Shown piece after piece: positions 2,678 to 50,178 of a DNA stretch of 64,000 nt. The notes under the pieces were generated by a model. It did not search any database, was not told the DNA's origin, and worked only from the letters and a program-made list of their open reading frames with translations. Source of the DNA: Planctomycetota bacterium (GTDB lineage Bacteria > Planctomycetota > UBA8108 > UBA1146 > JAJFFE01); NCBI GenBank assembly GCA_039028735.1, contig JBCCHQ010000008.1, positions 6,955-70,954 of the forward strand, given 5' to 3'. Made by a program: the position numbers and the translations under genes. How positions within the stretch are numbered: the first letter of the stretch is position 1; every line of letters starts with the position of its first letter.

Positions 2678-2758
2678 TACGGGTCGTACTCTATGGGTCG
2701 AATCATCAGTGCAACAAGATACTCGAACTCCGGGATTCACGTTCCGAGGAGGAGCTCC

Positions 2759-11700: not shown

Positions 11701-12334
11701 CGCCGGTCAGCTAGAAGCGGTCACACCAGCGCACGCGGCCGGTTCGGTCGACGTCGATGTGGTCGGGCCAGTCGAGAGCGCTACGCTGCCGAATGGCTTC
11801 GTGTACGTCGCTCCACCAACTCTGACGTCGATCACTCCTTCTGGAGGTGATGTCGGGGGCGGCAACATCGTGAACATTACGGGGACGAATCTGGGGTCGG
11901 TACTGGATACGACCATCATGTTCGGCGCGAACCCAGCCAGTGTCTCGAGCGTCGCTTTGGACCAGTCTAGTGCGATCCTGATCTCGCCGCCGGGTCCCCC
12001 GGGCTTTGCGGACGTGACCGTCACGACTGCAGGAGGTTCGGCCACGATCACGGATGGTTTCCTCTACTCGAGCGGTGTGTTCACGCGCGGCGACTCGAAC
12101 CAGGACAACCAGATCAACCTCGCGGACGCGATCTTCAACCTCAGCTACCTCTTTGCAAATGGCGCCGCCCCACTTTGCTTCGACGCAGCGGATACCAACG
12201 ACGACAGTTTCATCGACCTCGCGGACGTGATCTATCTCGTTTCGTTCTTGTTCGCGAACGGTAGCCCGCCACCGACGCCGTTCGAAGTGCCAGGGCCCGA
12301 CCCGACGTTGGACACGCTGAACTGTCTCAACTAG
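2759..12334 (+). CDS. Giant (3192 aa) secreted surface protein: N-terminal globular region, 1 isolated + 28 tandem IPT/TIG Ig-like repeats, C-terminal dockerin-like module
   Basis: ORF 2576..12334. The preferred start is ATG 2759, with GGAGG 6 nt upstream, immediately followed by the signal-peptide-like MFRVTRHLVICAMTLLLSLGSGGPGSA. Repeats have the form SPxxGTPLGGDTVTVTGSNFTADAxVxFDG...TPAHAPGxVDVxVxNxNGS. The C-terminus is VFTRGDSNQDNQINLAD...DAADTNDDSFIDLAD. Confidence 0.85.
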   Translation: MFRVTRHLVICAMTLLLSLGSGGPGSAQTASAQPALAAPVQMRGHETAHGVQLRWLNSAKYDSLQILRNGDPIATLPGDASDYFDGAASTGCNHYDLLATTGGISASPIAHTVLVAGDRTDLIWAPAGTVGGLTDSARMLYRTLQANGRHPLRITTLPAGADLAPFDSVWVTLGTFPYNHVLTPQESQVLLDYTSGPERVLYLEGGDTWFDDPATPLHDLFGAYATDGGDADLTTQFGTTNLCLIVLDADYVGEQESIDRLAPSTHGVPLLRNDIPAYDTVVLRQLPHGSYTVAASHEFGGLEPIAGDLAGLMELYLDCLDIRRPHQLELHSIAPIRGLSTGGERVTLQGSFSRQTQVFFGGVPATNFVYIDHDTVEVVAPANVAGLVDVTASDALGSTSLLQAFEYLPAPIATHANSSSGALAFGPGNMPTVQSGTLSTNGNGVFTATIAAVDTSRAFLIFNARHNNSDPDGSMLRGRIASSTSVEFARVTNGGDVIDVQWYVVEYPAGVISVQRGTIPTMNSTTIDVGITPVDLDQAFVTWSKTPAATDSSWGSNDPILMELTATDNLQLRVAGTHSAHVIWWQVVEFTNAADILVQRGTTSLTAGLSSVDVTLGTAIDTDQTFLMTGFTSGDGGSDIGSRMLRGQVIDSDTIRFDRDLTSDDIDEIAWQVVELRDGSTVQRGSASFASGVSQTSEALTAVDLTRAVAFASAQPDAGLSMGKTAYSGNDITGVGCATLSLSTTSVTLERNNTSSTADIGWFVVEWGSGILPPSIATVSPNNGTPFGGDTVTITGSEFTADAVVSFDGIAAATTFVNTNTLTATTPAHASGSVDVTVAGSTGSDTLSNGFTYNPAPSLSAVSPTSGTPLGGDTLTVTGSSFTADASLTVDGVAVATTFVNSTTLTAVTVAHAPGTVDVAVSNLNGSDSLSNAFTFLTPPAITTIAPTSGTPLGGETLTVTGTNFTADATIAIDGAVQTTTFVSATTLTAVTPAHAPGAVDVTVASVNGSDTLSNGFTYQQPPDITGVLPNDGSPLGGDSVTITGSNFTAGTTVAFDGVTIPTTFVNTVTLTVTTPPHAPGFVPVSVTNANGSDTLAFGFTYNNPPSISSVAPSNGTPLGGDTVTVSGSNFTPTTTVSFDGIAAATTYVTTTSLTAVTPAHATGTVDVAVANVNGTDTLAAAFTYDAGPVLTSLTPTNGPPAGGVTVTVTGSNFTADATVSFDGTNATTSFVNSTTLTASSPAHAPGTVNVTVTSINGSSTLTAAFTYDNPPSISSISPANGTPLGGDTVNVSGADFTPSTTVSIDGATVATTFLSATTLTAVTAAHAPGTVDVAVANVNGADTLPNAFTFDSPPDVTGVTPSNGSPLGAENITVSGANFTADAVVFIDGIAAATTFVSSTTLTATTPAHAPGVVNVSVSNINGSDTVIAAFNYDNPPSLASLAPTNGSPLGGDTVTVTGADFTPDATVTVDGTAVATTYVNATTLTITTLAHAPGAVDVAVSSLNGSDTLLGAFTYDEPPTLTAVNPNNGPPAGGQTVTVTGTNFTADAVVAFDGIAATTTFVSATSLTALTPAHSNGVVDVSVSNLNGSATLAAIYTYNDAPSIASLAPANGTPLGGDTVTITGSGFTGDAAVTFDGITAATTFVSTTTLTVITPAHAPGTVDVMVTNINGSDTLAAGFIYDTPPILTSVSPASGTPLGGDTLTISGANFTPDTTATVDGMATATTFVNTTTVTVVTAPHAPGAVDIAVTNTNGSATLTDAFTFNAPPTIATVSPSNGSPLGMQTITVTGTGFTPDAVVAVDGMALSTIYVSPTTLLATTLANAPGVVDVAVSNVNGSATLAGSFTYDSPPTIQSVTPNSGTPLGGEVVTVTGTNYTPGTLALFGGVVAATTFVDATTLTATTPAHVPGSFVVNVVNTNGSGSLFAGYTYDDYATIAAAAPSSGTPLGGTAVTLTGTGFTGTTSVTFGGVPAASVTFVNSTTLIAVTAPQASGTVNIVIANANGTDTLTGGFTFDSVPAISSVAPSAGTPFGGDTLTVVGTNFTADAVVSIDGTNLVTTFVSPTILTAVTAAHAPGTENVTVTNVNGSATLPGAFTFDSPPTLATVAPLNGTPLGGDLLTLTGANFTASTSVTIDGAATPATFVSSTTLTVVTAPHAPGTVDVAVANVNGSDTLSGAFTYDSPPALTSVAPANGTPLGGDTLTLTGSAFTLGTDVLIDGSVAVSTFVSSTTLTVVTPAHAPGSVDVAVTNVNGSATLAASFTYDAPPQITSVAPSVGTALGGQTVTVNGSNFTADAAVAFDGVTAATSFVDSNTLTAITPAHAAGAIDVSVMNLNGTATLATGYNYVDPPTLASVSPTSGSPLGGEIVTISGANFTLGSVVTVDGTAAAASFVDSGTITITTPPHAPGAVDIGVSNSIGSDTLSLAFTYNTPPGLTAVTPTNGTPLGGDTLTISGTNLTADSVVSIDGTAVATTFVSATTLTAVTVAHAPGLVDISVANVNGASVLASSFTFDNPPSVTSVSPGAGSPLGGQTITISGVNFTADATVSFDGIAAATTFVDSMTLSAVTPAHAPGAVDVTVTNLNGSATLSGGFAFNGPPVATGISPSDGSQVGGDTVTITGTGFIGDETVTFDGIAATTVNFINGSTITAETPPHTAGFVDVAVSNVNGTSTLVGAFEYLSTPTITSLSPTEGSSLGGTTVTLTGSNYIGGETVTFDGIPAPSVTLINSTTLDVVTPPHAPGAVTVAVSNVNGSGALPLSFTYEAPPALSGLTPPSGSPLGVTTVVVMGSGFDNATVVTFDGLLPATTTFIDSSNIEVVAPAHIPGFVDVTVTNSNGSDTALGAFLYESPPQTLFVAPIVGTSLGGDTVTVTGMDFTPDSVVLFGATPAATTYIDATTLEAVTPPQPGGLTDVSVTNANGNSVLPNAFTFQATLFVTVVTPGQGPVAGGTTVSVVGTGFQGNEVVLFDGIPATSLTLINAGQLEAVTPAHAAGSVDVDVVGPVESATLPNGFVYVAPPTLTSITPSGGDVGGGNIVNITGTNLGSVLDTTIMFGANPASVSSVALDQSSAILISPPGPPGFADVTVTTAGGSATITDGFLYSSGVFTRGDSNQDNQINLADAIFNLSYLFANGAAPLCFDAADTNDDSFIDLADVIYLVSFLFANGSPPPTPFEVPGPDPTLDTLNCLN
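4140..5074 (+). repeat. Four ~90-aa coding repeats of an unassigned domain, each ending W(Y/Q/F)VVE...(VQ)RG(T/S)
   Basis: The four repeat ends are ...DVIDVQWYVVEYPAGVISVQRGT, ...HVIWWQVVEFTNAADILVQRGT, ...IDEIAWQVVELRDGSTVQRGS and ...ADIGWFVVEWGSG. The block lies between the isolated IPT domain and the IPT array. Confidence 0.55.
5075..12076 (+). repeat. 28 tandem ~255-bp (85-aa) IPT/TIG-like coding repeats inside the giant gene (diverged, ~50-60% aa identity)
   Basis: The (I/L)xSVSPxxGTPLGGDT.T.TGxNFT...FDG...TTFV..TTLT..TPAHAPG.VDV.V.N.NGS..L...FTY unit recurs 28 times in the translation. Confidence 0.8.
12077..12331 (+). other. Dockerin-like C-terminal module (two F-hand Ca-binding repeats + Cys-containing tail) of giant protein
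   Basis: Repeat 1 is GDSNQDNQINLADAIFNLSYLFANG and repeat 2 is DAADTNDDSFIDLADVIYLVSFLFANG, followed by the tail PFEVPGPDPTLDTLNC. Confidence 0.75.
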
Positions 12335-12435: not shown

Positions 12436-13893
12436 TCAGGGGCAGTTTGCAAACGACAGACAGCCACGTCCTGGGCCACAAGCCGGAAACGGTGCGGCCG
12501 GCACCGGGCCGTGGGCAAACAGGTACATCGCAAGGAAGACTGCGTCAGCCAAGTCCACGTTCACGTCGTTGTTGGTATCGGCAGCGTCATAGCAACCGCC
12601 TGGCACTCCGGCTGCGGCAACCCAACGCGCAACAAAAACTACGTCTGATACATCCACGATGCCGTCATCGTTTGAGTCACCACGCACGAAGTCGACGTTC
12701 GCGGGCACGAGGCAGAAGTTGGTGTTCGGGGCAACGACTCCGTAGAAGATGCTGAGGTCAATCTGCATGGGGCAGATACCCGGGCCCAATCCGACTGGCA
12801 TCCCGATCGCATCAATAGCCACCTGACATGGGCCGATCGGGAGGTTACTGAAGACGTAGTCGCCAAGCGCGCCCGAGACCTGCGTTTCAGTGTAGTCGTC
12901 AGCCGTGCCTAGGATTCCATCGTTGCCAGCACAAGTCGCAACGACCGGGACGCCGGCGATTCCAACTTCGGCACTGTCTTCGACGCCATTGTCGTTCGCA
13001 TCGAGCCAGATCGTGCCGGAGACGTCACCCGAGGGTGGCGTTTGCAAGACGAGCGCCGAGGCCACCCAAGCAAAGGATGACGGCAGATTCGCACCTCCTG
13101 GTGGACCGGACAAGACCTGCACCGACAGAGACGAGACACCAGCGCCGATGGGAACGTCGAGCGCCAAGTGGTCCCATTCCGCACCAGACGTACTACCCAA
13201 CAGATCTGGATGATCCGTGACCACGCCATCTGTTTCGATACGAATCGAGTTGGGACGGTTCGCCTGGACGTCAGCGACGACGACCTGCAACGTCGCGGTG
13301 CGACTGGTTGGCAGCGGCGAGAACAGGAACGACTGTGGTTGGGTCGTGTCCAAAGGCGGTGTGAAGTAGTGAAAAGCCATGTCGAGGCCATCGGTCAAGA
13401 ACAGCTCACTGGCTGTCTGCCCATCATCGACAACGACAAACAGCGACGCGCCGTGTGCGAGAATGTCGAAGTCCAAGCCGGTGATTGCGACGCTATTGGT
13501 TCCCGGGTTCAACGTCACGTTGTTCGTTACGTCTGCACGAAACGCCGAACAATAGGTGCTCGAGAAGAACAGCGTCGGGCCTCCAGTCAAGACCCCCACC
13601 ACCTGCACTCCATTCACGAGCGCCGTGTCATCGCTGCCTGTCACGGGCCCCGTGTGAAAACCAGTCCAGCACAACAGTATCTGCGCCACCGACACGCCTG
13701 TTGGGACCTCGATTTCGATCGTGCTGGCGCCTGAGAGTAAACCAGTCCCGGCGCTGACCAGATCGCTCCCGGCAGCCAGCGGAGTGCTGAGGGGGCCCAA
13801 CGCCTCTGTACCATCCGCGTGAGCCGCGGCAGCAAAGCCCAGACTGAGAACCAGGGCCAGCAGAGTGCGAATGTACGAGTACTGAGGTGCCAT
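12436..13893 (-). CDS. Secreted protein with SdrD-B/Cna-B-like domain and C-terminal dockerin-like module
   Basis: ATG 13893 precedes the signal peptide MAPQYSYIRTLLALVLSLGFAAAAHA (the ORF track uses GTG 13902). An SdrD-B-like segment reads GTIWLDANDNGVEDSAEVGIAGV...TADDYTETQVSGALGDYVF. The dockerin-like tail is 12439..12690 (FVRGDSNDDGIVDVSD...DAADTNNDVNVDLAD...CGPGRGCLSFANCP). Confidence 0.8.
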   Translation of the reverse strand: MAPQYSYIRTLLALVLSLGFAAAAHADGTEALGPLSTPLAAGSDLVSAGTGLLSGASTIEIEVPTGVSVAQILLCWTGFHTGPVTGSDDTALVNGVQVVGVLTGGPTLFFSSTYCSAFRADVTNNVTLNPGTNSVAITGLDFDILAHGASLFVVVDDGQTASELFLTDGLDMAFHYFTPPLDTTQPQSFLFSPLPTSRTATLQVVVADVQANRPNSIRIETDGVVTDHPDLLGSTSGAEWDHLALDVPIGAGVSSLSVQVLSGPPGGANLPSSFAWVASALVLQTPPSGDVSGTIWLDANDNGVEDSAEVGIAGVPVVATCAGNDGILGTADDYTETQVSGALGDYVFSNLPIGPCQVAIDAIGMPVGLGPGICPMQIDLSIFYGVVAPNTNFCLVPANVDFVRGDSNDDGIVDVSDVVFVARWVAAAGVPGGCYDAADTNNDVNVDLADAVFLAMYLFAHGPVPAAPFPACGPGRGCLSFANCP

Positions 13894-14209
13894 TGGACAC
13901 ACTCCGTCCTAGCGCTTTGTAGAGGGATTGCCTGCGAAGAGGGCGCACGGCTTTCGCAATGCTTTGAGAGCGTGCGGTCGCAGCCCAACAGCTTGGCTGC
14001 TGGTTAGACCGTGGCGTGGAGAGGCGCCATCACCCGCTTGCTTGGCGGTGCCAGACAATTTGGGGGATCCATCTTAGCACTCGACCGCAGCAGCCCAAAT
14101 CAAAGCCCGCACGAAGTGACGAGAGCGCAACTTACGAAGCACTCCGCAAACGGCCAGACGAGCGGGATGTGCCCCGGCCAGAACGCCAGCAAAGTCGAAA
14201 CCTGGGGCC

Positions 14210-14889: not shown

Positions 14890-17361
14890 CTAGCAGCTGC
14901 TGGGTGACGGGCTCATGCAAGGCGTGAGCCCGTCCGCCGTCGCGTCGCTGCCGCACGCCGGATAGGGCGCCTGCGGCGCCGCGGAGCTCGGCACGAACAG
15001 AAAGTTCAGGAGCTGCACCGCATCGAGGATGTTGAGCGCCCCGTCGTCGCCAATGTCTGCGGCATCGGGGCACGCCAGGACTTGCCCCAGAAACAACGCT
15101 CCCAGGATCAAGACGGCATCATTGAGGGCCACCCCCCCATCCCCGGACACATCGCCGCGCAGGAATCGGTCTTGACCACCTTGGCCACGATTGAAGAGCA
15201 CAGCGACGGCGTCCGAATCGCGGCACGCAACGGCAAGATCAATTTGGCCGTCGCCGTCCAGGTCACCACTAGCAACGGCCGACGGCCACGCCCCCACGCC
15301 GAAACTCTGCACTGGAGCAAACGTACCCGAGCTCGATTCGAAGACGGCCACGGGCGCCTCGAGAATCGACAAGGCAACGACGTCACGACGGCCGTCGCCG
15401 TCGACGTCCACAGCCAACAAGTCTTGCTGTGCCCCACCCATGATCTCGACTCCACTGCTGAAGAACCCTCCAGCGCCGTCACCTGAGAGCAATCGTAGCC
15501 GCGGCGTCTGTAGGCCACTCGCCGTTGCGAGGTCCAAGATCCCGTCGCCGTCGAAGTCACCGCTAACAACGTCGAAGCCTACTTCCGGTAGCGTCATGAT
15601 TACGGAAGGCATCTGCAGCGTGCCGCCCGTCGTGCCGGCGAAGTAGTACAGTCTGGGGTCTCCCGAGAGCGTTCCTTGCGTCAAGACGACGACATCGAGC
15701 GCGCCGTCGTTGTTGTAGTCCCCAGTCGTAAGGTCGACAGGGATCAACGGCGCGCTGTAGTTGACCGGTGCCCCAAAACCACCGCCGCCGTTCCCTGGCA
15801 CGACGATCAGAGCATCGTTGCCCGGATCCAGCGCAAGGACGTCGAGGTTCCCGTCCCCGGTCACGTCCGCAACTGCCAGCGACGCGAGCGAGAAACCGGT
15901 CGCGATCGCCGCGCCCACGGAGAAGCCACCCAGGCCGTCCCCATTGCCGACAACGATCGAGCCCTGCACGGCTTCCAACATGACGACGTCGAGGTCCGCG
16001 TCTCCGTCGAGATCCGCCAGCGCCACTTCGGTGGGGTCCAGCGGTGCGAGATTGACCTGACTCGTCGTATACGCGCCGGGCACCGACTGCCGATGCAGCA
16101 CTAGCTGGTTGACTTCGGTCACTGCCACTACATCGACATTTCCGTCGTTGTCGACATCGCCAACGGCCGTCCCCACCGGCTGGTCGCCACTCGGCAAGTA
16201 GAGAGGTTGCTGCAAGGCACCAGAGCCGCTGCTCTTAACGGTCGCCACCGCATCGATTCCCAACAACACCAGCAGATCGTCGTTCCCATCCGCATCGAGG
16301 TCACTACTAGCAACCTCCAACGGCAGCTGCCCAACATCCAACTCGCTGACGTTCGAGAAACCGCCGGCACCGGTACCCAGCAGGACTGCGCCGTCGCCAT
16401 CGAAGGTGCTGACGACAACGAGATCGATGAACGCATCGCCGTTGAGGTGAACCGCATGGAGCGTGGATGCTAGCGCACCAGCAGGCACCGAGGCGCTGGA
16501 CGCGAAACCGCCGGCGCCGTCACCGAAACGAATCACAACATCGTCACTCGATGAGTTCGCGGTCGCGATGTCAATGAACCCGTCAGCGTTCAGGTCTTCG
16601 AGAATCAGGTCCTGCGGGTTGCTCCCCATGGGGAGAGCTATCGGCAGAGTCGACGAAGGTGCCAAACCGCCCGTGCCGTCCCCGAACAACACACGCACCT
16701 CATCCTGGATGCGCGCCGTCACCACGAGGTCGAGATTTCCGTCCTGGTCGAGATCGGCCAGCTGGGGCTTCCCTGGACTGGGCAACACCAGCGATGAGCC
16801 TGTCGTGAAGCCGCCGCTGCCAGTGCCCAATAGAACTTGACCTTGGTCATCTAGATTGCTGGTAACGAACAGATCGCTGACGGCATCGTTGTTCAAATCG
16901 CCGACGACCAGACCATCGGGCAGGCATATCGTCGCTGTATTCTGGCTCCACGCGAAAGAACCATCGCCGGGACCAACGAAGAGCGAAACGTTGTGGGAAC
17001 TCAAGTTGGCGGTACACACGTCGAGATTGCCATCACCGGTGAAGTCACCGACGGCGATGGCGTAGGGTTCCGTCGCCCCGGTGGCCCAGAACCGACTCCA
17101 ACTGGGAAAGGCTCCGCTGCCGTCATTGAGGGCAACGATGATCGAGCTGAGAAAAGGGGGATTGGGGGTCTGCACGGACGCGACGACATCCACGCAACCG
17201 TCGCCATTGAGGTCGCCGGTCGCCATCGCCGTCACACAAACGATACAGACGGTGTCTCCGAGGGGAAACGTTCGAAACGTCTCGAATTCAACCGCGCTGC
17301 TCGACGACGAGAGACTCACGAATGTCGAGAACACGACTACGGCCAGCGGAGACTTGCGCAA
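14890..17361 (-). CDS. Secreted FG-GAP/VCBS-type beta-propeller repeat protein with C-terminal dockerin-like module
   Basis: TTG start with an in-frame stop 5 codons upstream and a purine-rich RBS. Signal peptide is MRKSPLAVVVFSTFVSLSSSSSA. There are >10 repeats of the form GD(L/F)NGDGxxDxVxx. The dockerin-like tail is 14893..15165 (FLRGDVSGDGGVALND...DAADIGDDGALNILD...CGSDATADGLTPC). Confidence 0.8.
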   Translation of the reverse strand: MRKSPLAVVVFSTFVSLSSSSSAVEFETFRTFPLGDTVCIVCVTAMATGDLNGDGCVDVVASVQTPNPPFLSSIIVALNDGSGAFPSWSRFWATGATEPYAIAVGDFTGDGNLDVCTANLSSHNVSLFVGPGDGSFAWSQNTATICLPDGLVVGDLNNDAVSDLFVTSNLDDQGQVLLGTGSGGFTTGSSLVLPSPGKPQLADLDQDGNLDLVVTARIQDEVRVLFGDGTGGLAPSSTLPIALPMGSNPQDLILEDLNADGFIDIATANSSSDDVVIRFGDGAGGFASSASVPAGALASTLHAVHLNGDAFIDLVVVSTFDGDGAVLLGTGAGGFSNVSELDVGQLPLEVASSDLDADGNDDLLVLLGIDAVATVKSSGSGALQQPLYLPSGDQPVGTAVGDVDNDGNVDVVAVTEVNQLVLHRQSVPGAYTTSQVNLAPLDPTEVALADLDGDADLDVVMLEAVQGSIVVGNGDGLGGFSVGAAIATGFSLASLAVADVTGDGNLDVLALDPGNDALIVVPGNGGGGFGAPVNYSAPLIPVDLTTGDYNNDGALDVVVLTQGTLSGDPRLYYFAGTTGGTLQMPSVIMTLPEVGFDVVSGDFDGDGILDLATASGLQTPRLRLLSGDGAGGFFSSGVEIMGGAQQDLLAVDVDGDGRRDVVALSILEAPVAVFESSSGTFAPVQSFGVGAWPSAVASGDLDGDGQIDLAVACRDSDAVAVLFNRGQGGQDRFLRGDVSGDGGVALNDAVLILGALFLGQVLACPDAADIGDDGALNILDAVQLLNFLFVPSSAAPQAPYPACGSDATADGLTPCMSPSPSSC

Positions 17362-18791: not shown

Positions 18792-20042
18792 CTAGTCCTC
18801 GGCCAGCAACTCTTCAATGATGCCTTCGAACTCTCGACGCAGGGCGTCGTACGCAGCACCTGTGGCCGGGCCCGTGAAGCCTGTGTGTATGGCGCGAATC
18901 CGACCGTCGGAGTGCAAGAACACCGTGGTTGGGTACGAACGTACCCGATCCAAGGCTCGCAACGCCTCGGTAGCCGCGGCCTTGTCCGACGGGCCGGCGA
19001 TCAGGACCGGGTACGGCGTGTCGTGACGCTCGATATAGCGCTGTACGATCGCGACGTTCCGGGCGAAGTCATCGGTAACTTCGAATGCGAGGCCAACGAT
19101 CGACAGGCCACGTGAGGAATACCGGCGGTGCAACTCGCCAAGGTACAACGCGGCGTCGTGGCAGTTTGGACACCACGACCCGAAGATCTGCAGCACCCGC
19201 GCCTTCCCGGCGAACTTTGGATCCGCCAGCGACGTCGGGTGTCCCGCGAGATCGGGAAACGACAGATCCGACAAAGCAACGGCCTCGCTCCAGGACGTCT
19301 GCCCGAAAGCATCCGGCAACTCCACGGCAGCGTCGCGCTCAGCTGTCCACGTCTCGTGCCAGACGTCTCGTGACCAGAAGTCGCCGGACAAAGTACCGTC
19401 TTCGTTGGCGATCGCCTTGAACAAGAACGCGTGGGCGCCATCAAAGCATGAGAGCCGCAACGTGCCGTCCTCGACCTGACCCGCAAGGAAGCGATAGTCG
19501 CCTGTGGTGGTCATGAAAGTCCCCTCGACCGCACCGGAGTCATCGACGGAGAAGATGCCCACCGCTGGATCGTCGTTGCTCGAGAACCGCACGCGCCAGC
19601 GGCCGGTGAAGCGATCCGCGGCAGCAGTCCGGGCTCGCGCTGGGGCCTCGGCTCGATCTTCATGGGTGGCTGCAAAGGGCAGCTGTGCCCACTGGGCTTC
19701 GCCAATCCGCTTCTTCCAGCTGCCCGTGAGCCGACCGGCGCCGTCCATGCGCGCAACGATCCGGGCATCGTAGTGCGGCAAGTCGAACACGACCGTCGCC
19801 GCGGCCACCGTCGTTGCTGGGACTACGATCCGTTCGCTGCCATTCCACAGCGCGCTGGAACCGTCGGCATTGATATCGAGTCCAAACTCCAATGGCCCGC
19901 CTGGGGACACTAGGTGAGCTTGCCATCGCCCGGCGCGCAGCAGCAGCGGGTGTGGGGCGGATGGGTCAGCGTCACGGTCAGGTGCCCAAGAGGCACACCC
20001 CCACAGCATGACGAGAAGCAACAACAACAAGGTCCACTGCAT
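18792..20042 (-). CDS. Exported two-domain protein with C-terminal TlpA/ResA-like thioredoxin-fold (WCPNCH CxxC)
   Basis: Signal peptide MQWTLLLLLLVMLWGCASWA. The N-terminal region is internally duplicated (GRWQAHL.../GRWRVRF...). The thioredoxin motif is FGSWCPNCHDAALYLGEL. Confidence 0.8.
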   Translation of the reverse strand: MQWTLLLLLLVMLWGCASWAPDRDADPSAPHPLLLRAGRWQAHLVSPGGPLEFGLDINADGSSALWNGSERIVVPATTVAAATVVFDLPHYDARIVARMDGAGRLTGSWKKRIGEAQWAQLPFAATHEDRAEAPARARTAAADRFTGRWRVRFSSNDDPAVGIFSVDDSGAVEGTFMTTTGDYRFLAGQVEDGTLRLSCFDGAHAFLFKAIANEDGTLSGDFWSRDVWHETWTAERDAAVELPDAFGQTSWSEAVALSDLSFPDLAGHPTSLADPKFAGKARVLQIFGSWCPNCHDAALYLGELHRRYSSRGLSIVGLAFEVTDDFARNVAIVQRYIERHDTPYPVLIAGPSDKAAATEALRALDRVRSYPTTVFLHSDGRIRAIHTGFTGPATGAAYDALRREFEGIIEELLAED

Positions 20043-22740: not shown

Positions 22741-23598
22741 ATGTTCAAGTTGTCTTGTGCGCTCACAGCGGTGGCAGCGATGTCGCTCCTTGCAGCACCC
22801 TGCTACTCGCAAGGGGCCAGCGCTTCGTTCGCCTTTCCTGACCGCGAAGTGCCAGTGACCGGCACGTTCTTCTGCGACCTGGCGATTACCAACGATACGG
22901 ACCTTCAGGGGTTTCAGACATCGATCACTTGGGATCACACACAACTCGAGTTCCTGAGTGTGACCGGGATCGGCACGGATGCGGAAGCCGCCCTGTTCGC
23001 CGTCAATCCCAGCTTGATGCTTGGTTGTGAACCGTACGAGTTCTTCCTACCTGTTACCGTAGGCCCGATCGCGGCGACCAATCGATCGCGGCAACTGACA
23101 GGAGTCGTCTTCGACTTCGTGCCACCGTTCGGTAGCGTGGTGCTGGCGCCGGGTACCGACATGACCGCTTTGCGCTTCCGTTTCGAGTCGATCGGCGGCG
23201 CCCTGGGCGCAACGACCGACTTGCTGTTCGACACTGCACCTGGAGACAATTCTGTCATCGTACAGGGTTTGTCGATCATCGTCGGGCTCGATGACGCGAC
23301 GCTGACGTTCTCAGAACCGTTCCTGCGCGGCGACACCGATGGCGACGGCACCGTGAATCTCGTCGACGCGATCTTGGTGTTGAATTACTTGTTCAACAAC
23401 GGCGTGGCTCCGACCTGTCTCAACGCCGCCGACGCCAACGACGACGCGACTACGGGTATGATCAACACGGCCGACGCGGTCTACATACTCAGCTATCTCT
23501 TCAACGCAGGGGCCACGCCGCCGGCGCCTTTTGGTAGCTGCGGGGCGGACCCAACCCCGAGCCCGCTCAGCTGCGGCGGGCCAACGGCATGCCCGTAG
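22741..23598 (+). CDS. Secreted protein with N-terminal cohesin-like module and C-terminal dockerin-like module
   Basis: AGGAG lies 5 nt before ATG 22741. Signal peptide is MFKLSCALTAVAAMSLLAAPCYSQG. A cohesin-like core reads VPVTGTFFCDLAITNDTDLQGFQTSITWDHTQLEFLSVTG. The dockerin-like tail is 23320..23595 (FLRGDTDGDGTVNLVD...DAADANDD...CGADPTPSPLSCGGPTACP). Confidence 0.75.
   Translation: MFKLSCALTAVAAMSLLAAPCYSQGASASFAFPDREVPVTGTFFCDLAITNDTDLQGFQTSITWDHTQLEFLSVTGIGTDAEAALFAVNPSLMLGCEPYEFFLPVTVGPIAATNRSRQLTGVVFDFVPPFGSVVLAPGTDMTALRFRFESIGGALGATTDLLFDTAPGDNSVIVQGLSIIVGLDDATLTFSEPFLRGDTDGDGTVNLVDAILVLNYLFNNGVAPTCLNAADANDDATTGMINTADAVYILSYLFNAGATPPAPFGSCGADPTPSPLSCGGPTACP
22816..23319 (+). other. 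Cohesin-like module (type-I cohesin signature G-x-x-x-x-I-x-[YW]-D-x-x-x-LE-[FI]-[LI]-x-V-x-G)
   Basis: The segment GFQTSITWDHTQLEFLSVTGIG aligns with the clostridial cohesin motif GIANCDFVYSYDPNVLEIIEIEPG. Confidence 0.5.
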
Positions 23599-23619: not shown

Positions 23620-24681
23620 TTACGGACAAACCGGCGCGCAGCCGCTGGTCGGCTGGCAGTTCATACCGAGAACGTGCGGGGGTCCCGCGCTGAACGACCA
23701 GGCGATCAGATGAACGGCGTCAACGAGGTCGACAGAGTTGTCGCCATTCGCATCGAGAAGCATCAGGTTGTTGCCCTCGTTTGCAGAGGCCGAGTCGCAT
23801 GGCAACACCTGCTGTGTTACGCCAAACAGATAATCCAATAGCGAAACAGCATCGCTCAACCCAACAGCGCCGTCGGTGTCGAAGTCGCCCGGAAGAAAGT
23901 CGCCGCCGCGCGTGCCAACGATCTTCAGCAGCGACTGCTGCTGGCTACCAATCGCTGCTCTCGTTTGGAGGCAGATCGTCGCAGTGAAGTTGTCGGCATC
24001 GTGAAAAATCACTTCGCCGACAGTATCGCGCGGGTGGTTCGTGACGGTGCCTGCGTACGTAGCGTAGCTCGGAAGCCAGCCGGTGACGGTGTTGTTGATC
24101 ACTCGAATTCCGACATGATCGTTCGCGAAGAACAAGCCCTCGAAGAAGATACCATTGGGACGAGCAAGACGGAGCTTGTTGCCAGTAATCGTCAGGGTGA
24201 CCGTCTCATTGAACGTCGCGTTGACGGCACCGCTCTGCGGGTTGAGTCCTTGGGTCACGGCATCGTAGTCACCGCTGCGTGCGACGTCACCTGGAATCGC
24301 TGCGCTCGGCAGCTGCGTCGGGAAATTGACAGTAGTCCCTGGGCACCGAGTGCAGTTGTACAGGTAGCCGGCGCCATTGCCGACTTGCGTCGAGAATGCG
24401 TCGGGCCCCGTGAAGCTACCCGGAAACTGACCAGAGATCAGAATCGCACCACCCGGCCCGATCGTCCCGTTCCAGCCAAAGCCAAAGAAATCTCGCAACT
24501 CGTACTGATTGCCGGACACGTGGAGCACCGAGAACCACTCGGTGAATGTCGTTGGATTGCCACCTTGGGTGTTTTGCATATAGTACATGCCACGCGGGTT
24601 GATTTGCGCCGTGGCCGGCGGAGCTCCCACTAGCAGAAAGCAGCCCAGCAGGGCACCTATCGTCCAACTTCGCCGTTGCAT
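23620..24681 (-). CDS. Secreted protein of unknown N-terminal fold with C-terminal dockerin-like module
   Basis: Start at the ATG giving MQRRSWTIGALLGCFLLVGAPPATAQ, with GAGGAG 7 nt upstream. The dockerin-like tail is 23623..23898 (FLPGDFDTDGAVGLSD...DANGDNSVDLVD...CQPTSGCAPVCP). Confidence 0.75.
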   Translation of the reverse strand: MQRRSWTIGALLGCFLLVGAPPATAQINPRGMYYMQNTQGGNPTTFTEWFSVLHVSGNQYELRDFFGFGWNGTIGPGGAILISGQFPGSFTGPDAFSTQVGNGAGYLYNCTRCPGTTVNFPTQLPSAAIPGDVARSGDYDAVTQGLNPQSGAVNATFNETVTLTITGNKLRLARPNGIFFEGLFFANDHVGIRVINNTVTGWLPSYATYAGTVTNHPRDTVGEVIFHDADNFTATICLQTRAAIGSQQQSLLKIVGTRGGDFLPGDFDTDGAVGLSDAVSLLDYLFGVTQQVLPCDSASANEGNNLMLLDANGDNSVDLVDAVHLIAWSFSAGPPHVLGMNCQPTSGCAPVCP

Positions 24682-24946: not shown

Positions 24947-27811
24947 ATGAACCGTCAATTCACGGCACGAGCGATCGGGTGCGGGTTGGCACTGACCTTC
25001 ATGTATCTTGCGCTACCGGCGGCAACTTACGCCAACAACGCTGCGCTGCAGAGGCTGCAGGAGGCCTACCCAGGAGTACGCGTCCTGAGACTCGAGGACC
25101 GCATGGCGATCTACGGTAAGCCCATGACTCGCGCGGCGACGCCCGACGCGGCCGCGGCGGCGTGGTTGGCCAACCACTCGCAGACCTTCGGTGTACCGGG
25201 ATTGGATCTACGTTTGCGCCGCAGCTACGATCTCCTCGGCAACGGTCTGGTCGTCTATCACTACGAGCAATGGATCGGCACGACGGCCGTCGAGTACGGC
25301 GCCGCTCGCATCGCCGTGCGCCCTGGCCCAGACGCGGCCGCCGTCGTCTACGCCGCAGCAACGTTGGCGGAGATCCACGACGAAGCGCTGGCACCTATCC
25401 GTATCAGCAGTGACCAAGCCTCGGCAATCGTCGCAAAGCATCGCTTCTTCGGCAATCTCGAGGAGTACTCGACACCGCAACTGTCGATCATCAAAAGCTC
25501 ACCGGTCCTCGACTCGGAAGGCGCACCGCTGCCGCGCCGTACTTGGCGCCTGACGGGCAGCGACTCGTCACTGACGCAGCCTCGCGCGTTCACGTTTCAC
25601 ATCGACGCGGAAACAGGCGCTCTCCTCGAGGCTCGGTCTGAGATTCACAATCTCGATGTCTCTGGCACGGTGAGTGGCTTGGCAAGCCCCGGCGACCGTC
25701 CAGACACCGCGGCGAACCCTCCGGTCAGCGTGCCGTTGGCGTCTGCCGAAGTGGCCATCGGCGCCACGACTGCAATCAGCGATGCCGCGGGTGCGTTCAC
25801 TGTACCGTTCGGCGGCACCGGCGCAGTGAACGTCGACGGCGTGCTGCGCGGCCCTTGGGTCGAGGTCCTCACGCAACAAGGTACGCCCGTCACGACAACG
25901 CTACTGGCGACACCACCGGGACCTGCGAACCTACTTCTCAACGACACACCATCGGAGTTCACGACGGCACAGGTCAACGCATTCGTGCACGTCAATCAAG
26001 CGCATGACTTCTTCGCGCAACGGGCGCCAACTTTCACCGACATCGATATTCCCCTTCCTTGCACCGTCAACGTGCCTGGCAGCTGCAACGCATCGTTCTC
26101 GAGCCTTTCGATTTCGCTGAGCTTCTTCGCCGCAGGAGGTGGTTGCGAGAACTCATCGTTCTCTGACATCGTCCAACACGAGTACGGTCATTTCGTTGTC
26201 AACCGCATTGGCCTGGCCCAAGGCGCCTTCGGGGAAGGCTTCGGCGACACGCTGTCGTTGATCTTCGCCGACGACGCGCAGCTGGCTGAGGATTTCGGTG
26301 GCCCTGGAACGGTGGGTCGAGACATCACCGGAGACAACGTCCAGTACCCGTGTCCCAGCACCGCAATTCACTTCTGCGGGGAGCTCCTCGCAGGTTGCTG
26401 GTGGGACCTCCGCGTCGCGTTGGGTGCCAGCTTGGGTAGCGCAGCCGGGCGTGACCTCGCGCAACAGTTGTTTGCGGACTGGAGCCAGCTCACCTTGGGT
26501 GGCAGCGGTTTCAACAGTGCGCACCCGATGACTGCCATCGAGTACATGATGGTTGACGACGACGACGGCAACATCGACAACGGCACCCCTCACCGCGACG
26601 ACATCTGTCTCGCATTCTCGAATCACAGCATCGACTGCCCAATCCTCCCACCCATCCTGTTCGAGTTCCCACTGGGCCTCCCGACGATGGTCAGCCCGGC
26701 AGCCACGACGACCGTTCAGGTCAGCATCGTCGAAACCACCGGAACATTGGTGCCTGGATCCGAGCGCGTTTGGTGGTCGTTGGACGGCTTCAACTTCACC
26801 GAAGGACAGCTGACCGCCCTGGGCTCGGGACTCTACGAGGGCACGCTGCCGGCAGCGATGCAGTGTGGCCGCTACCGCTACTACTTCTCGGCTGACTTGC
26901 TCGGTGGCGGGACCGAGTTGTCCGCGCCACAGCTCCCCCACTCGTTGACGGTCGCAGATGGGTTCACGGAGCTGCTGTTCGATGACATGGAAACCGACCC
27001 CGGGTGGACGGTTGGTGCGCCGACCGACACCGCGACCACCGGAATATGGACGCGCGACGATCCCATCGGCACAACTGCGCAGCCTGAGAACGACCACACC
27101 CCGACGGGCACGCTGTGCTGGTTCACTGGCCAGGGAACGCCCGGCGGCGCTCAAGGCGAGAATGACGTCGATGGCGGCCCCACCACGCTGGTCTCACCCA
27201 GTATCGATGCAACCCAAGGCGAGACGCGCATACAGTTCTATCTCATGTATGCAAACTCTACCGGCAACGCACCGAGCTCGGACGTGTTCCAGATCGAGAT
27301 CTCCAACTCTGGCGTGTTGGGTCAGTGGATACCCGCGCTCACGCTGGGCCCCGATGTCTTCTCGTTGCTTGGAGTTTGGCAGCTGTACGAACTTTGGGTC
27401 TCCGACTACGTCACACCGACGAATACGGTCCACGTTCGCTTTCGAGCCCGCGACGATGCTCCCGGATCCATCGTCGAGGCTGCACTCGATGACCTTCGCG
27501 TGGAAGTGGTCTTCTGCGACTCGACCCCATCGTTTCGTCGCGGTGACTGTAACGACGACGGCGGGGTGCAGATCGCGGACGCAGTGTTCTTGCTGTCGGG
27601 TCTGTTCGGCGGAGTAGGACTGACACCGCCATGTGCAGATGCCTGTGACGGCAACGATGACGGCAACCTCGACATCGCTGACGCTGTCTTGATTCTTGCT
27701 GCGTTGTTCTCAGGTGGTGGCCCATTGCCTGATCCAGGTATGGACAACTGTGGTGCTGACGCGACAACTGGCGACACTCTACTCGAGTGCGCGGGAGCTA
27801 CCTGCCTCTGA
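24947..27811 (+). CDS. Secreted zinc metalloprotease (HExxH: VQHEYGHFV) with C-terminal dockerin-like module
   Basis: ATG 24947 gives the signal peptide MNRQFTARAIGCGLALTFMYLALPAATYA. The HEYGH motif is at ~nt 26180. The dockerin-like tail is 27533..27808 (FRRGDCNDDGGVQIAD...DGNDDGNLDIAD...CGADATTGDTLLECAGATCL). Confidence 0.8.
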   Translation: MNRQFTARAIGCGLALTFMYLALPAATYANNAALQRLQEAYPGVRVLRLEDRMAIYGKPMTRAATPDAAAAAWLANHSQTFGVPGLDLRLRRSYDLLGNGLVVYHYEQWIGTTAVEYGAARIAVRPGPDAAAVVYAAATLAEIHDEALAPIRISSDQASAIVAKHRFFGNLEEYSTPQLSIIKSSPVLDSEGAPLPRRTWRLTGSDSSLTQPRAFTFHIDAETGALLEARSEIHNLDVSGTVSGLASPGDRPDTAANPPVSVPLASAEVAIGATTAISDAAGAFTVPFGGTGAVNVDGVLRGPWVEVLTQQGTPVTTTLLATPPGPANLLLNDTPSEFTTAQVNAFVHVNQAHDFFAQRAPTFTDIDIPLPCTVNVPGSCNASFSSLSISLSFFAAGGGCENSSFSDIVQHEYGHFVVNRIGLAQGAFGEGFGDTLSLIFADDAQLAEDFGGPGTVGRDITGDNVQYPCPSTAIHFCGELLAGCWWDLRVALGASLGSAAGRDLAQQLFADWSQLTLGGSGFNSAHPMTAIEYMMVDDDDGNIDNGTPHRDDICLAFSNHSIDCPILPPILFEFPLGLPTMVSPAATTTVQVSIVETTGTLVPGSERVWWSLDGFNFTEGQLTALGSGLYEGTLPAAMQCGRYRYYFSADLLGGGTELSAPQLPHSLTVADGFTELLFDDMETDPGWTVGAPTDTATTGIWTRDDPIGTTAQPENDHTPTGTLCWFTGQGTPGGAQGENDVDGGPTTLVSPSIDATQGETRIQFYLMYANSTGNAPSSDVFQIEISNSGVLGQWIPALTLGPDVFSLLGVWQLYELWVSDYVTPTNTVHVRFRARDDAPGSIVEAALDDLRVEVVFCDSTPSFRRGDCNDDGGVQIADAVFLLSGLFGGVGLTPPCADACDGNDDGNLDIADAVLILAALFSGGGPLPDPGMDNCGADATTGDTLLECAGATCL

Positions 27812-31157: not shown

Positions 31158-32894
31158 CTACGGGCACACCGAGTTCGTACAGGTCAGCAGGTCCGGCGTC
31201 GGCTCCGTCGCACACAGCGGAAAGGGCGCGATCGGTTGCGGCGCCAGGCCGAACAGGGCCTGAATCGAAACCACGGCATCGGCCACCGTCAAAGCCCCAT
31301 CGTCGTCGGTGTCACAAGCGCTTTGGCATGGCGCGCTGCTTCCCAGGAACAACACCTGCAAAAGGTAGGCGGGATCCGAAATGTCACGGATCAGGTCCGA
31401 GTTACAGTCACCGCGAACGAACTTAGGCGGCGGCGGCTGTTGCGGCCGCAAGTCAGCGACGCGCAGGAGGTGGTCGGACGCCTCGGAGTCAGGCGCCTGC
31501 AAACCAGCGGCGCTGAGCACAGCACTCGACATTTCCGGCGTGTACAGCACATAGTGATTCGCCGGTGCGACCACGGAGTCTGAATAGATCACGAAATCGA
31601 GCAGCCCGGGCCAGAAAGAAGAATTGTCATTGCGCCACGTGTAGGCCATTCGCTTTTCGGTTTGCGACGAAACGAGATTCACCAAGCCGGTGCCATCCCA
31701 ATCCAAAGCGACGTCCGCACCATACGTTGCTTCGTCAGCAACATCGCCAGTCAGCAGCGACGTCAACGTTGACGACAGGCCGACAAGATTCAGATCCCCG
31801 ACAACGACGATCGCGGTGTCAGCTGCGATCGTCAGGGGACCACCGCTGGCTTTGGCATCACGCACGAACGCCAAGATCTCGTCTACTTCGTCCTGCCGCC
31901 CAGTCTCGTTGCTGCAACAGGGCAAATGAGCGTTGATCAACAAAAGCTGCTGACCCAGCACCGCTGTCGTGTCCACGAGAACAGCCAGATTCCCCGATAG
32001 CGACCAAGACCCGAGGATCGCGTAGCGACTCACAACGATGCAGTCGTTGTTGTCGGCAGCCGACCAAACAGCACCACTGCCTGCATTGACCCAGGTTCCC
32101 ACCAGCGACGCCGTCTCTGCCGCGGTGTGATTGTAGATCTCTTGAAAACACCAAATGTCAGCGTCGACGGCCGAGAACTGGCGACCAAAGCGTGGTTCCT
32201 CGCCCGGGTCCCAAGGAGAATCGTTGTGCACGTTGTAGGTGGCGATGCGGAGGTCACTGGCTTGTTGACGTCCAAGTGGGATCGGTGCGGGCGGCACAGC
32301 GGTGCCTTGATCCATCGTATAGACAACGCTGCCGGTATTGGGAAGCTCATCCCCGGCACCGTCTTCGTCGCGCAAGATCAGACGCACTTGTGTTCCTGAA
32401 AACAGCGGCTGGGCGCCGTTGGGAAGCGTATCGCGACCGATACTCACCTCAAACCACGACGACGACACTGTCGGGCCCGAGCGTAGGCGTAGATCATCGT
32501 GAAACAGTGTGCTCCCGCCGCCGACATGAAACGTCCCGGTGCGGCTCCCGAAACGCCACTCGAGCTCTGCACCGATTCCGCGCACAGGCAGACCCGTCGC
32601 AGAGTTCATGTCGGTGTCGAGGTAGAGGACGAGATCGTTCCCCTCGTCGAGTTGGCTCTCGATACCCAGTTCCAATCGCAGGAACAGGAAGCGGGCATCG
32701 TCTGCAACGCTCAAGCCTGCAAAGTCCAATCCCGAGGGACCGGCGTCACCAGCCCCGTCGGTATGGGCCGGTAGCACCCCACCCCAGTCGAGATCACGGC
32801 CATCGACTTGGATCGGGTGTTGTTCTCCACAGGCATTTCCGCCAATGGCGAGGACAACCAGGAGCACGGTAAATGCAAGGTGTTGCGTCGACAC
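31158..32894 (-). CDS. Secreted endonuclease/exonuclease/phosphatase (EEP)-family protein with C-terminal dockerin-like module
   Basis: GTG start with signal peptide MSTQHLAFTVLLVVLAIGGNACG. The EEP motif is LRIATYNVHNDSPWDPGEEPRFGRQFSAVDADIWCFQEI. The dockerin-like tail is 31161..31421 (FVRGDCNSDLIRDISD...DTDDDGALTVAD...CATEPTPDLLTCTNSVCP). Confidence 0.8.
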   Translation of the reverse strand: MSTQHLAFTVLLVVLAIGGNACGEQHPIQVDGRDLDWGGVLPAHTDGAGDAGPSGLDFAGLSVADDARFLFLRLELGIESQLDEGNDLVLYLDTDMNSATGLPVRGIGAELEWRFGSRTGTFHVGGGSTLFHDDLRLRSGPTVSSSWFEVSIGRDTLPNGAQPLFSGTQVRLILRDEDGAGDELPNTGSVVYTMDQGTAVPPAPIPLGRQQASDLRIATYNVHNDSPWDPGEEPRFGRQFSAVDADIWCFQEIYNHTAAETASLVGTWVNAGSGAVWSAADNNDCIVVSRYAILGSWSLSGNLAVLVDTTAVLGQQLLLINAHLPCCSNETGRQDEVDEILAFVRDAKASGGPLTIAADTAIVVVGDLNLVGLSSTLTSLLTGDVADEATYGADVALDWDGTGLVNLVSSQTEKRMAYTWRNDNSSFWPGLLDFVIYSDSVVAPANHYVLYTPEMSSAVLSAAGLQAPDSEASDHLLRVADLRPQQPPPPKFVRGDCNSDLIRDISDPAYLLQVLFLGSSAPCQSACDTDDDGALTVADAVVSIQALFGLAPQPIAPFPLCATEPTPDLLTCTNSVCP

Positions 32895-48963: not shown

Positions 48964-50178
48964 CTAGCAGCCGGTCACTTGGCAATCGAGCGTGTCCGGA
49001 GACAGATCCGGACCACAGGTCTCGACGATCGGTGGGCCACCGCCAAACATCGACAGCAGCAGCGCCAACGGATCGGCAATATTGACGCCACCATCGTCGT
49101 TCATGTCACCGGCGTCCATGCAAAGCATGGGGCCGTTGTTGAACAGGAAGTTCAGCATGTTGATCGCGTCGGCGATGTTGCAGGCGCCATCGAGGTTGCT
49201 GTCACCACGCAAGAAGGAATCACCAGCTGCAGCGATCGTCACGTCGGCGATCGAGGCTTGGCCAACGTCGTTGAGTACGGTTACTTGGGTCGAACCTGGA
49301 GTCGTCGCCACCACGTCGCACGTGATGTTGACGAAGTCGGTTCCGTAGAGCGCCGTATCGAACGGCACCAAGAAAAGCATGAAGACGACAGCCTGGCTGC
49401 CTCCCATGGTGATGTCACAAGGAATCGGTCCGTTCGCAGCAATGTAGGCGCTGAGACCAGCTCCCGGGTCGATACTAGAGATGGACAGCTGAGTTGGATC
49501 CACAGTGACCGTGAACATCGTCAAGACCAAGGGCATTGTCGACGTCACATCAACCGGCAGCGACACCGGCTGGCCGATCGTCGCTGTCGCGTCAGCGATG
49601 GTGTAGTCGCCAAAGCCCATCGGTACCGGCAGCGGCGGCTGCGGCGGCTGTGGGATCTGGCTTGGATCGATCGGCGTCCCCCCTGGGAAGTTGACCGTGG
49701 CCGTTGAGACGAGTCCCGACATCGTATCTGTCAGAGTCGCAGTCGACGTGCCGACTTGCTGCGCGATTGCCAGACAATCGACGACGACGAACTCGTCGCC
49801 GTAGACAGCCGCGTCGTAGGGAACTCCAAAGAAGAAGAACGCGTTCAGAGCAGAACCGGTGTTCGAGTCATCGCACCCGATCGGGCCGTTGGCGGCGAGG
49901 TATGCCGCGAGGCCTGCGCCCGGATTCCAGCCGGTGATGAGGATATCAGCCGGTGCCACGTTCAGCGTGAACGAGGCCTGCGACGCGATGCCAACGGAGT
50001 CGGCGGAGATCACCATCTGAAACGGCACGCCCAAATCCGATGTTGCGTCCGCAATCGTCAGATCCAGCGTGTTCGGTCCCCCACCTCCGATGGGCGGCAA
50101 CGGGAATGGAATCCCCTGCCCTTGCGCTCCTGAAGTAGCCACCAGGCACAAGAACATCGTAATGGCGAGTCGTCTCAC
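48964..50178 (-). CDS. Secreted protein with two tandem cohesin-like modules and C-terminal dockerin-like module
   Basis: GTG 50178 (GGAGAGGA 8 nt upstream) gives MRRLAITMFLCLVATSGAQG. Modules lie at 49681..50067 and 49216..49614 and contain ...ASFTLNVAPADILITGWNPGAGL... and ...MFTVTVDPTQLSISSIDPGAGL.... The dockerin-like tail is 48967..49215 (FLRGDSNLDGACNIAD...DMNDDGGVNIAD...CGPDLSPDTLDCQVTGC). Confidence 0.75.
   Translation of the reverse strand: MRRLAITMFLCLVATSGAQGQGIPFPLPPIGGGGPNTLDLTIADATSDLGVPFQMVISADSVGIASQASFTLNVAPADILITGWNPGAGLAAYLAANGPIGCDDSNTGSALNAFFFFGVPYDAAVYGDEFVVVDCLAIAQQVGTSTATLTDTMSGLVSTATVNFPGGTPIDPSQIPQPPQPPLPVPMGFGDYTIADATATIGQPVSLPVDVTSTMPLVLTMFTVTVDPTQLSISSIDPGAGLSAYIAANGPIPCDITMGGSQAVVFMLFLVPFDTALYGTDFVNITCDVVATTPGSTQVTVLNDVGQASIADVTIAAAGDSFLRGDSNLDGACNIADAINMLNFLFNNGPMLCMDAGDMNDDGGVNIADPLALLLSMFGGGPPIVETCGPDLSPDTLDCQVTGC
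49216..50067 (-). other. Two homologous ~130-aa cohesin-like modules (49681..50067 and 49216..49614) separated by a Pro-rich linker
   Basis: Internal repeat TIADAT...F.(L/V).V.P..L.I.....PGAGL.AY.AANGPI.CD...VPFD.A.YG..FV. The segment FTVTVDPTQLSISSIDPG matches the cohesin signature F.Y.YDP.VLEI..IEPG. Confidence 0.5.

Follow-up and report, generated by a model that had tools for sequence, protein, structure and literature searches.

A dockerin module with a conserved, probably disulfide-stapled extension on diverse secreted proteins of uncultured, mostly planctomycetal bacteria

Dockerins and their cohesin partners are familiar chiefly from anaerobic cellulosomes, and engineers make wide use of such pairs as parts. 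Here we describe a cysteine-containing dockerin module that ends nine proteins encoded in a single stretch of 64,000 nucleotides from a Planctomycetota bacterium (assembly GCA_039028735.1, contig JBCCHQ010000008.1, forward-strand positions 6,955 to 70,954); this whole stretch is called the window below. An earlier note on the window had drawn attention to the C-terminal tail at positions 12439-12690 and to its eight counterparts, and had suggested that they might be sorting signals or disulfide-locked dockerin variants. We consider it moderately probable that the module is a dockerin with a disulfide-stapled extension that replaces or reinforces the clasp of known dockerins, and that it serves a non-cellulosomal cohesin-dockerin assembly of the 'planctosome' type in uncultured bacteria, most of them Planctomycetota. 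The dockerin module itself is known. What is apparently new is the conserved, cysteine-stapled extension, which is widespread and has no description in solved structures, in Pfam or NCBIfam, or in the literature that we reached.

Type I dockerins (PF00404; 2vn5, 4fl4, 5m2o, and 8ajy) have a core of ~60 residues made of duplicated F-hand Ca loops and helices, are usually found at the C-terminus of secreted cargo, and occur with cohesins in the same genome. The window modules share all of these features, and their predicted fold superposes on the solved ones at 2.1-2.5 A. In contrast to type I dockerins, however, they add a proline-rich, cysteine-containing extension of 25-30 residues (columns 63-90 of the nine-tail profile) and a cysteine in the linker between the repeats. 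Moreover, their host is known from a Planctomycetota metagenome-assembled genome (MAG), they reach the Pfam cut-off in one of nine tails, and domain scans of the window proteins recognized no glycoside hydrolase in the cargo.

In known dockerins, residues -3 to -1 before loop 1 form a non-covalent clasp with C-terminal proline or aromatic residues, and this contact stabilizes the Ca-bound fold (Slutzki et al. 2013, PMC3821032). Mutating the clasp lowers the melting temperature by up to 20 °C and weakens binding about tenfold, and disulfides are not mentioned in that study (PMC3821032). The window family has F at -3, R at -1, and a C-terminal P-F-P at the clasp positions, and in its structural model the extension pairs with the N-terminal strand. 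Whereas the known clasps consist of stacking, hydrophobic contacts, or salt bridges, the clasp region of the window family is extended and apparently stapled by one to three disulfides. A review of cellulosome structure from 2025 refers to disulfides solely where they have been engineered in (PMC12484212), and work that it cites indicates that engineered intermolecular disulfides can lock cohesin-dockerin pairs. We found no description of a natural cysteine framework in bacterial dockerins in the literature, of which our coverage is incomplete.

The closest proposed system is the 'planctosome', which Andrei et al. (2019, PMC6461901) put forward for freshwater Planctomycetes on the basis of their cohesin and dockerin proteins and their proteins with proprotein-convertase P-domains. 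That system rests on prediction only, and cysteines or disulfides are not mentioned in the work that proposed it (PMC6461901). The window likewise encodes secreted cohesin and dockerin proteins, a P-domain, and non-cellulolytic cargo, and its cohesin-bearing adaptor (48964-50370) adjoins the P-domain protein (50485-53751). Among the window ORFs (open reading frames) scanned, we found no match to the lamin-tail anchor (LTD) of the planctosome or to its dockerin-bearing M12B and M14 peptidases. The cohesin-dockerin pair of Archaeoglobus fulgidus (2xdh) also works outside cellulose degradation and is the best fold match of the adaptor's repeat 2; unlike the window system it is archaeal, and a cysteine-stapled extension is not seen among solved dockerins. 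Anaerobic fungi, too, carry cysteine-rich, disulfide-stabilized docking modules on their secreted enzymes. Those modules have an unrelated fold, a small beta-structure that lacks F-hand Ca loops, and their likeness to the window module is functional only.

A six-frame motif scan and alignment showed that nine window ORFs share a C-terminal module of 85-98 amino acids (aa), as follows.

12439..12696, minus strand: Cys-dockerin module, 86 aa, 4 Cys; ends the SdrD_B-domain protein 12436-13902; the tail named in the earlier note; AlphaFold2 pLDDT 90.1; Dockerin_1 21.2 bits against a gathering score of 22.9.
12074..12331, plus strand: Cys-dockerin module, 86 aa, 2 Cys (C35 and C84 only); ends the 3252-aa IPT/TIG-repeat protein 2576-12334.
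14893..15171, minus strand: Cys-dockerin module, 93 aa, 4 Cys; ends the FG-GAP repeat protein 14890-17361.
23314..23595, plus strand: Cys-dockerin module, 94 aa, 4 Cys; ends protein 22630-23598; the sole tail above the Pfam Dockerin_1 gathering score (26.9 against 22.9 bits).
23623..23904, minus strand: divergent Cys-dockerin module, 94 aa, 4 Cys, with an insertion before loop 2 and a shortened terminal motif; ends protein 23620-24909.
27527..27808, plus strand: Cys-dockerin module, 94 aa, 6 Cys including RGDC and ACD; ends the 996-aa protein 24821-27811.
31161..31427, minus strand: Cys-dockerin module, 89 aa, 6 Cys; ends the endonuclease/exonuclease/phosphatase (EEP)-family protein 31158-32894.
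48967..49221, minus strand: Cys-dockerin module, 85 aa, 4 framework Cys and 1 at loop-1 position 8; ends the two-cohesin protein 48964-50370.
50488..50781, minus strand: Cys-dockerin module, 98 aa, 8 Cys; ends the P-domain protein 50485-53751.

The stretch 12439-12690 on the minus strand corresponds to the final 84 codons of the 488-aa ORF 12436-13902, whose product begins with a signal peptide and contains an SdrD_B-like domain. Signal-peptide-like N-termini are present on all nine proteins. Apart from the module these proteins are unrelated to one another, comprising ~30 IPT/TIG repeats, FG-GAP, SdrD_B, EEP, and P-domains, cohesin-like repeats, and regions of unknown function.

The nine tails have the consensus xxFxRGDxNxDGxVxxxDAVxxLxxLFxxGxxxxCxDAxDxNDDGxxDxADAVxLLxxLFxxGPxPxAPxxxCGxDxTxDxLxCxxxxCP. 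Two F-hand Ca loops are followed by a proline-rich stretch, which is present as the earlier note described, and then by C-G-x-D-P-T-x-D-x-L-x-C-x4-5-C(P). Identity to the first tail of the alignment is only 35-43%. Cysteine accounts for 43 of the 819 tail residues (5.25%) and for 66 of 7625 (0.87%) in the remainder of the same proteins, so the richness of the tails in cysteine is beyond chance (Fisher p = 8e-17). Cys35, five residues before the first Asp of Ca loop 2, is invariant in all nine tails. An additional Cys stands immediately before that Asp (ACD or RCD) in three tails, and the same three carry RGDC in loop 1. A cysteine two to five residues before loop 2 had been claimed for every tail; this is true of Cys35, although the motifs listed in its favor merge Cys35 with the Cys of ACD/RCD. 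The terminal motif C-G-x-D-x-T/S-x-D-x-L-x-C, which had been described as common to the tails, is intact in six of nine; the first Cys is missing in 2576-12334, and 12436-13902 and 23620-24909 have a shortened form. Similarly, the ending C-P, said to be the usual one, is found in five tails, and the other four stop at C (two tails), CL (one), or CLN (one).

The cysteines remain conserved when more copies are aligned. Across 129 modules, consisting of the window tails and 120 database matches, Cys occupies column 35 in 99%, column 84 in 98%, column 73 in 88%, and column 89 in 76%; columns 8 and 39 have Cys in 32% each. The extension also contains a D-P-T-x-D motif (columns 76-80; for example in tails 50488-50781 and 23314-23595) that is 94/70/81/84% conserved and is absent from tail 12439-12696. 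This motif resembles half of a DxDxD-type Ca2+ site and may provide a third site for metal or serve as a recognition loop.

To judge from its predicted structure, the module is a dockerin. An AlphaFold2 model of window positions 12439-12720 (minus strand), built on an alignment of 122 sequences, has a pLDDT of 90.1 and a pTM of 0.82, with helices at residues 24-35, 44-47, and 57-69. The N-terminal strand (9-11, V-D-F before R-G-D) pairs with a strand of the extension (82-84). All 32 top PDB fold matches to this model are dockerins (probability 0.91-1.00, TM on target 0.35-0.82), and the root-mean-square deviation between the predicted fold and the solved ones is 1.7-3.4 A, mostly 2.1-2.5 A. 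By sequence, the match between the profile and PDB dockerins is confined to columns 2-62, and the PDB profile comparison found no solved counterpart of the extension (columns 63-90). The solved clostridial and ruminococcal dockerins lack a Cys at column 35 in three alignments, which agrees with the earlier statement that canonical dockerins do not have the cysteine framework.

The Ca ligands D7/N9/D11/D18 and D40/N42/D44/D51 are conserved at 88-100% in the 129 modules, and in the model a helix follows each Ca loop. In both repeats of these modules, conservation of the N-I-A-D-A-V/I segments (loop positions 9-14) is strong and symmetrical, likewise at 88-100%, and the segments correspond to the cohesin-contacting helices of known dockerins. 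Dockerin_1 is the top Pfam match in eight of the nine tails, with 26.9 bits in one tail against a gathering score of 22.9 and 15.5-21.5 bits in the others; one tail has no match. NCBIfam contained no model for the module when the nine tails were scanned. By the criteria of predicted fold and Ca loops, the module belongs to the dockerin superfamily, and its conserved ligands suggest that it binds Ca2+.

The cysteines of the module come and go in pairs. Cysteines were counted in 614 modules, which come from 279 proteins. C35 and C84 occur together in 411 modules and are both missing from 138, and just 65 modules have one without the other. The corresponding numbers are 217, 317, and 80 for C73 and a Cys after column 84, and 56, 538, and 20 for C8 and C39. 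The co-occurrence of C8 and C39 held up in a second set, 162 non-identical modules taken from independent genome loci (both 36, neither 117, single 9). Complete modules fall into nested classes: 191 have C35 and C84 only, 146 add C73 and the terminal Cys, and 48 further add C8 and C39, with 10 lacking all of them. The tail of 2576-12334 belongs to the two-Cys class, and C8 and C39 are found almost solely on a four-Cys background. Because the classes are nested, even-numbered, and gained or lost in pairs, we infer that the modules form one to three intramolecular disulfides. C35-C84 would be the best-supported pair and C73 with the terminal Cys the second. A disulfide-locked dockerin variant, one of the two possibilities raised in the earlier note, is supported by the predicted dockerin fold, the conserved Ca ligands, and this pairwise co-variation.

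We propose that the extension, P-x-x-P-F-P-x-C-G-x-D-P-T-x-D-x-L-x-C-x4-5-C-(P), folds back on the N-terminal F-x-R-G-D segment, with disulfides fastening it to the core. The principal staple would run from Cys35, in the linker before loop 2, to Cys84. Most modules would add a bond from Cys73 to the terminal Cys, and about a tenth a third pair consisting of Cys8 (loop 1) and Cys39 (before loop 2). The stapled extension would be a covalent counterpart of the intramolecular clasp of dockerins, with a probable stabilizing role, and a covalent clasp would suit proteins that are exported into oxidizing water. In this scheme the module may plug diverse secreted cargo (the IPT/TIG giant and the FG-GAP, SdrD_B, P-domain, and EEP hydrolase proteins) into cohesin-bearing adaptors or scaffolds. 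The outcome would be a non-cellulosomal, planctosome-type assembly at the surface or outside the cell.

The two-cohesin protein 48964-50370 (minus strand) may be such an adaptor. It is listed at NCBI as 'hypothetical protein AAF581_03035' of the MAG Planctomycetota bacterium, and it consists of a signal peptide, two repeats of ~135 aa that are 36% identical, and the Cys-dockerin module. The repeats are the following.

49231..49632, minus strand: cohesin-fold repeat 2, a candidate docking partner; Pfam Cohesin 24.7 against 24.1 bits when scanned alone; AlphaFold2 pLDDT 93.9; top 33 PDB fold matches all cohesins.
49684..50085, minus strand: cohesin-like repeat 1, 36% identical to repeat 2.

The best PDB fold match of repeat 2 is 2xdh, the non-cellulosomal cohesin of Archaeoglobus fulgidus (E = 7e-8). 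Each repeat contains two invariant Cys, so these cohesins look disulfide-stabilized too. Cohesin and dockerin modules are encoded in the same genome, and a paralogue of the adaptor (P0273) is present in the same MAG. The contig of a relative retains only partial synteny (adaptor, 851-aa protein, and M1 peptidase). The dockerin of the adaptor has a fifth Cys at loop-1 position 8 that is kept in the homologues P0272 and P0273. We considered this Cys as an intermolecular cross-linker and judged that unlikely: it is probably buried and not cross-linking, because the position is V/I/F/L, a buried hydrophobic residue, across the family.

Other proteins combine the module with cohesin-like domains. 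In P0138, P0124, P0135, and P0144, complete Cys-modules alternate with domains of ~180 aa or longer that match Pfam Cohesin (37.6 bits in P0135; 23.7 bits in P0138 and P0124). The motif G-W-S-F-G-V-C-H-D recurs in cohesin-like domains between Cys-dockerin modules in several unrelated MAG proteins (P0144 and ORFs of loci L033 and L029). These sequences suggest that a second, distinct cohesin-like family co-occurs with the module. Within the window, a third cohesin seemed present by eye in 22630-23598 (plus strand; residues ~60-235, ..LQGFQTSITWDHTQLEFLSVTG..), and it was rejected after hhalign against the window repeats and phmmer against PDB were negative. From the conserved contact segments and the co-encoded cohesins, the module probably binds a cohesin.

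Several points weigh against this reading. The Foldseek E-values of the dockerin model are weak (~1e-2), although all matches agree; such weakness is expected of a domain this small. About 10-15% of modules have an odd number of Cys. The co-variation counts are drawn from related sequences, and hence their Fisher p-values overstate independence. A direct C8-C39 bond is doubtful. The two positions flank the two Ca loops, and in dockerins helices 1 and 3 are antiparallel and the Ca loops sit at opposite ends of the domain. The six-Cys form possibly re-pairs, for example as C8-C73 and C39-C89. Finally, the window has one cohesin gene for nine dockerins, and a narrow profile made from the two cohesin repeats found none in 116 other module-bearing loci; it also had no match in the large protein database or among representative proteins.

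This shortage of cohesins favors the strongest competing explanation, in which the module is a partner-less stabilizer or matrix binder that binds Ca2+, polysaccharide, or the envelope, and not cohesin. Many non-cellulosomal dockerins may likewise be partner-less, and dockerin-like modules far outnumber recognizable cohesins, with nine modules to two repeats in the window. Additionally, P0126, P0128, and P0121, which are among the top profile matches, have long dockerin-repeat arrays with EF-hand or TSP3 matches and no cohesin. We nevertheless regard this explanation as unlikely. The putative contact positions N-I-A-D-A-V/I are conserved in both repeats across divergent modules, which fits a conserved protein partner, and cohesin-fold domains are fused to the module or alternate with it in several proteins.

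The placement of the module bears on a second alternative. The module is strongly biased toward the C-terminus: 119 of 138 matched stretches (129 sequences, first match set) end two or fewer residues from the protein end, and in the genome loci, where 146 complete modules have a stop downstream, 125 are C-terminal. In 212 of 247 C-terminal modules at most two residues follow the last Cys, and in 122 the final residues are CP. This bias, the very diverse cargo, and the many copies per genome (nine in 64 kb, and 14 from one MAG among the loci listed) would be expected of a C-terminal sorting or secretion domain like the C-terminal domain (CTD) of the type IX secretion system (T9SS). Such a domain would be read by dedicated export or attachment machinery and then removed or covalently attached, and the dockerin-like fold would be a recognition surface only. 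The T9SS (Por) CTD and PEP-CTERM or LPXTG signals do resemble the module in that a single conserved tag sits at the C-terminus of many unrelated secreted proteins of a genome. However, the T9SS CTD is a beta-sandwich, PEP-CTERM and LPXTG consist of a motif, a transmembrane helix, and a basic tail, and all are strictly terminal and cleaved. The window module is, by prediction, a helical Ca-binding domain that is also found internally and in tandem.

The internal copies are numerous and complete. Among the 614 modules, 173 with Cys35 and Cys84 are internal, as are the remaining 21 of the 146 in the genome loci. P0129 has four modules in tandem, and in P0138 a module at residues 22-106 opens the mature chain straight after the signal peptide. 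No hydrophobic anchor, transmembrane segment, or basic tail follows the motif, and scans of the nine tails against NCBIfam and Pfam at E <= 1 gave no sorting-signal model, only sub-threshold dockerin and EF-hand matches. No conserved neighboring protease or sortase was seen, and ordinary dockerins are likewise mostly C-terminal. The likeness to PEP-CTERM or Por-type sorting signals drawn in the earlier note does not survive these results, and a sorting function is in our view distinctly improbable. We read the terminal placement as a domain boundary probably pinned by the last disulfide, and not as a cleavage signal.

It is most improbable that the cysteines are instead metal ligands, a redox switch, or intermolecular cross-links: the odd Cys counts, the conserved fifth Cys of the adaptor's module, and the engineered intermolecular disulfides that the review PMC12484212 cites as able to lock cohesin-dockerin pairs would fit such roles, whereas ~385 of ~450 complete modules have 2, 4, or 6 Cys with pairwise gain and loss, the fifth Cys takes a V/I/F/L position that is probably buried, and the modules lack a His/Cys cluster of the sort usual at Zn sites.

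How widespread is the stapled dockerin? The nine-tail profile matched 221 proteins at E <= 1e-3 in a collection of 5.8 billion proteins, and the named ones are almost all from Planctomycetota MAGs. In an exhaustive representative library it matched 52,179 proteins at E <= 1e-3, 25,394 at 1e-10, and 624 at 1e-30. The median score is 81 bits for complete modules and 34 bits for dockerin cores without the extension; since such cores also score, the 1e-10 set is an upper bound for proteins with the extension or with several dockerins. A degenerate DNA pattern for C-G-x-D-P-T-x-D-x-L-x-C, run on species-representative genomes, matched at least 116 stretches, with a bona fide module in 114 of the 116 listed. 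Among the matches listed, ~97 are labeled Planctomycetota, Planctomycetia, or Pirellulales, and the others carry labels such as Bacillota MAG 7, Proteobacteria, Ignavibacteria, Zixibacteriota, or unclassified; all are MAGs, with no cultured isolate among them. The cargo in eight sampled relatives includes FG-GAP, CotH with TIG, cohesin-like, and unknown proteins, one of the unknown ones with a HEFGH zinc-protease motif.

The family is systematically under-annotated. The Pfam gathering score is reached by one of the nine tails, Dockerin_1 is called in two of the eight sampled relatives, and NCBIfam has no model, so that thousands of such proteins are annotated as hypothetical. A dedicated profile that includes the extension would mend this annotation.

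A bolder proposal, which we offer tentatively and consider on the unlikely side, is that the Cys-stapled module is a distinct and very large dockerin class, the standard C-terminal plug of cohesin-based surface display in uncultured aerobic Planctomycetota and in members of a few other phyla (up to ~25,000 cluster representatives at E <= 1e-10). The D-P-T-x-D loop would then act either as a third Ca2+ site or as a second surface for recognition, giving a binding mode not seen in cellulosomes. If the stapled dockerin is real, its presence in bacteria of oxic waters would show how the module adapts to oxidizing environments, and it could provide sturdier docking parts for engineering. It would also give a testable handle on the hypothetical planctosome, namely on which secreted proteins of uncultured Planctomycetota assemble together. 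The finding should help annotation, engineering, and tests of the planctosome idea; it is not a new principle.

Two thioredoxin-fold, TlpA-like proteins encoded near the tails had been pointed out in the earlier note. The first, 18792-20042 (minus strand), is lipoprotein-like, with a Redoxin/AhpC-TSA domain and a WCPNC active site. The second, 62861-63955 (minus strand), extends past the window end and gave TPR repeats and a weak DsbD_N match. A phmmer search with both proteins found no homologue among the ORFs of the 116 module-bearing loci, and a functional link of these genes to the module is not indicated.

Two of the tail-bearing proteins have features of their own. The 3252-aa protein 2576-12334 (plus strand) has ~30 IPT/TIG repeats and no tandem repeat at the DNA level, and therefore its repeats are old and diverged; numerous antisense ORFs within it are mechanical artefacts of the repeat composition. 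The P-domain protein 50485-53751 (minus strand), which adjoins the cohesin adaptor, is a secreted protein of 1088 aa (P_proprotein E = 7.6e-13) whose N-terminal 880 residues match no family. The window otherwise looks like ordinary chromosome, with YchF, glycosyltransferases, sigma factors, kinases, and a Na+/H+ exchanger. It also encodes a 678-aa caspase (C14) domain protein (29063-31099, plus strand), a fusion of ECF sigma-70 regions 2 and 4 to CarboxypepD_reg repeats (39630-41972, plus strand), and a Ser/Thr kinase fused to an FGE-sulfatase-like domain (54638-57055, plus strand). These are unusual fusions of a kind typical of Planctomycetota.

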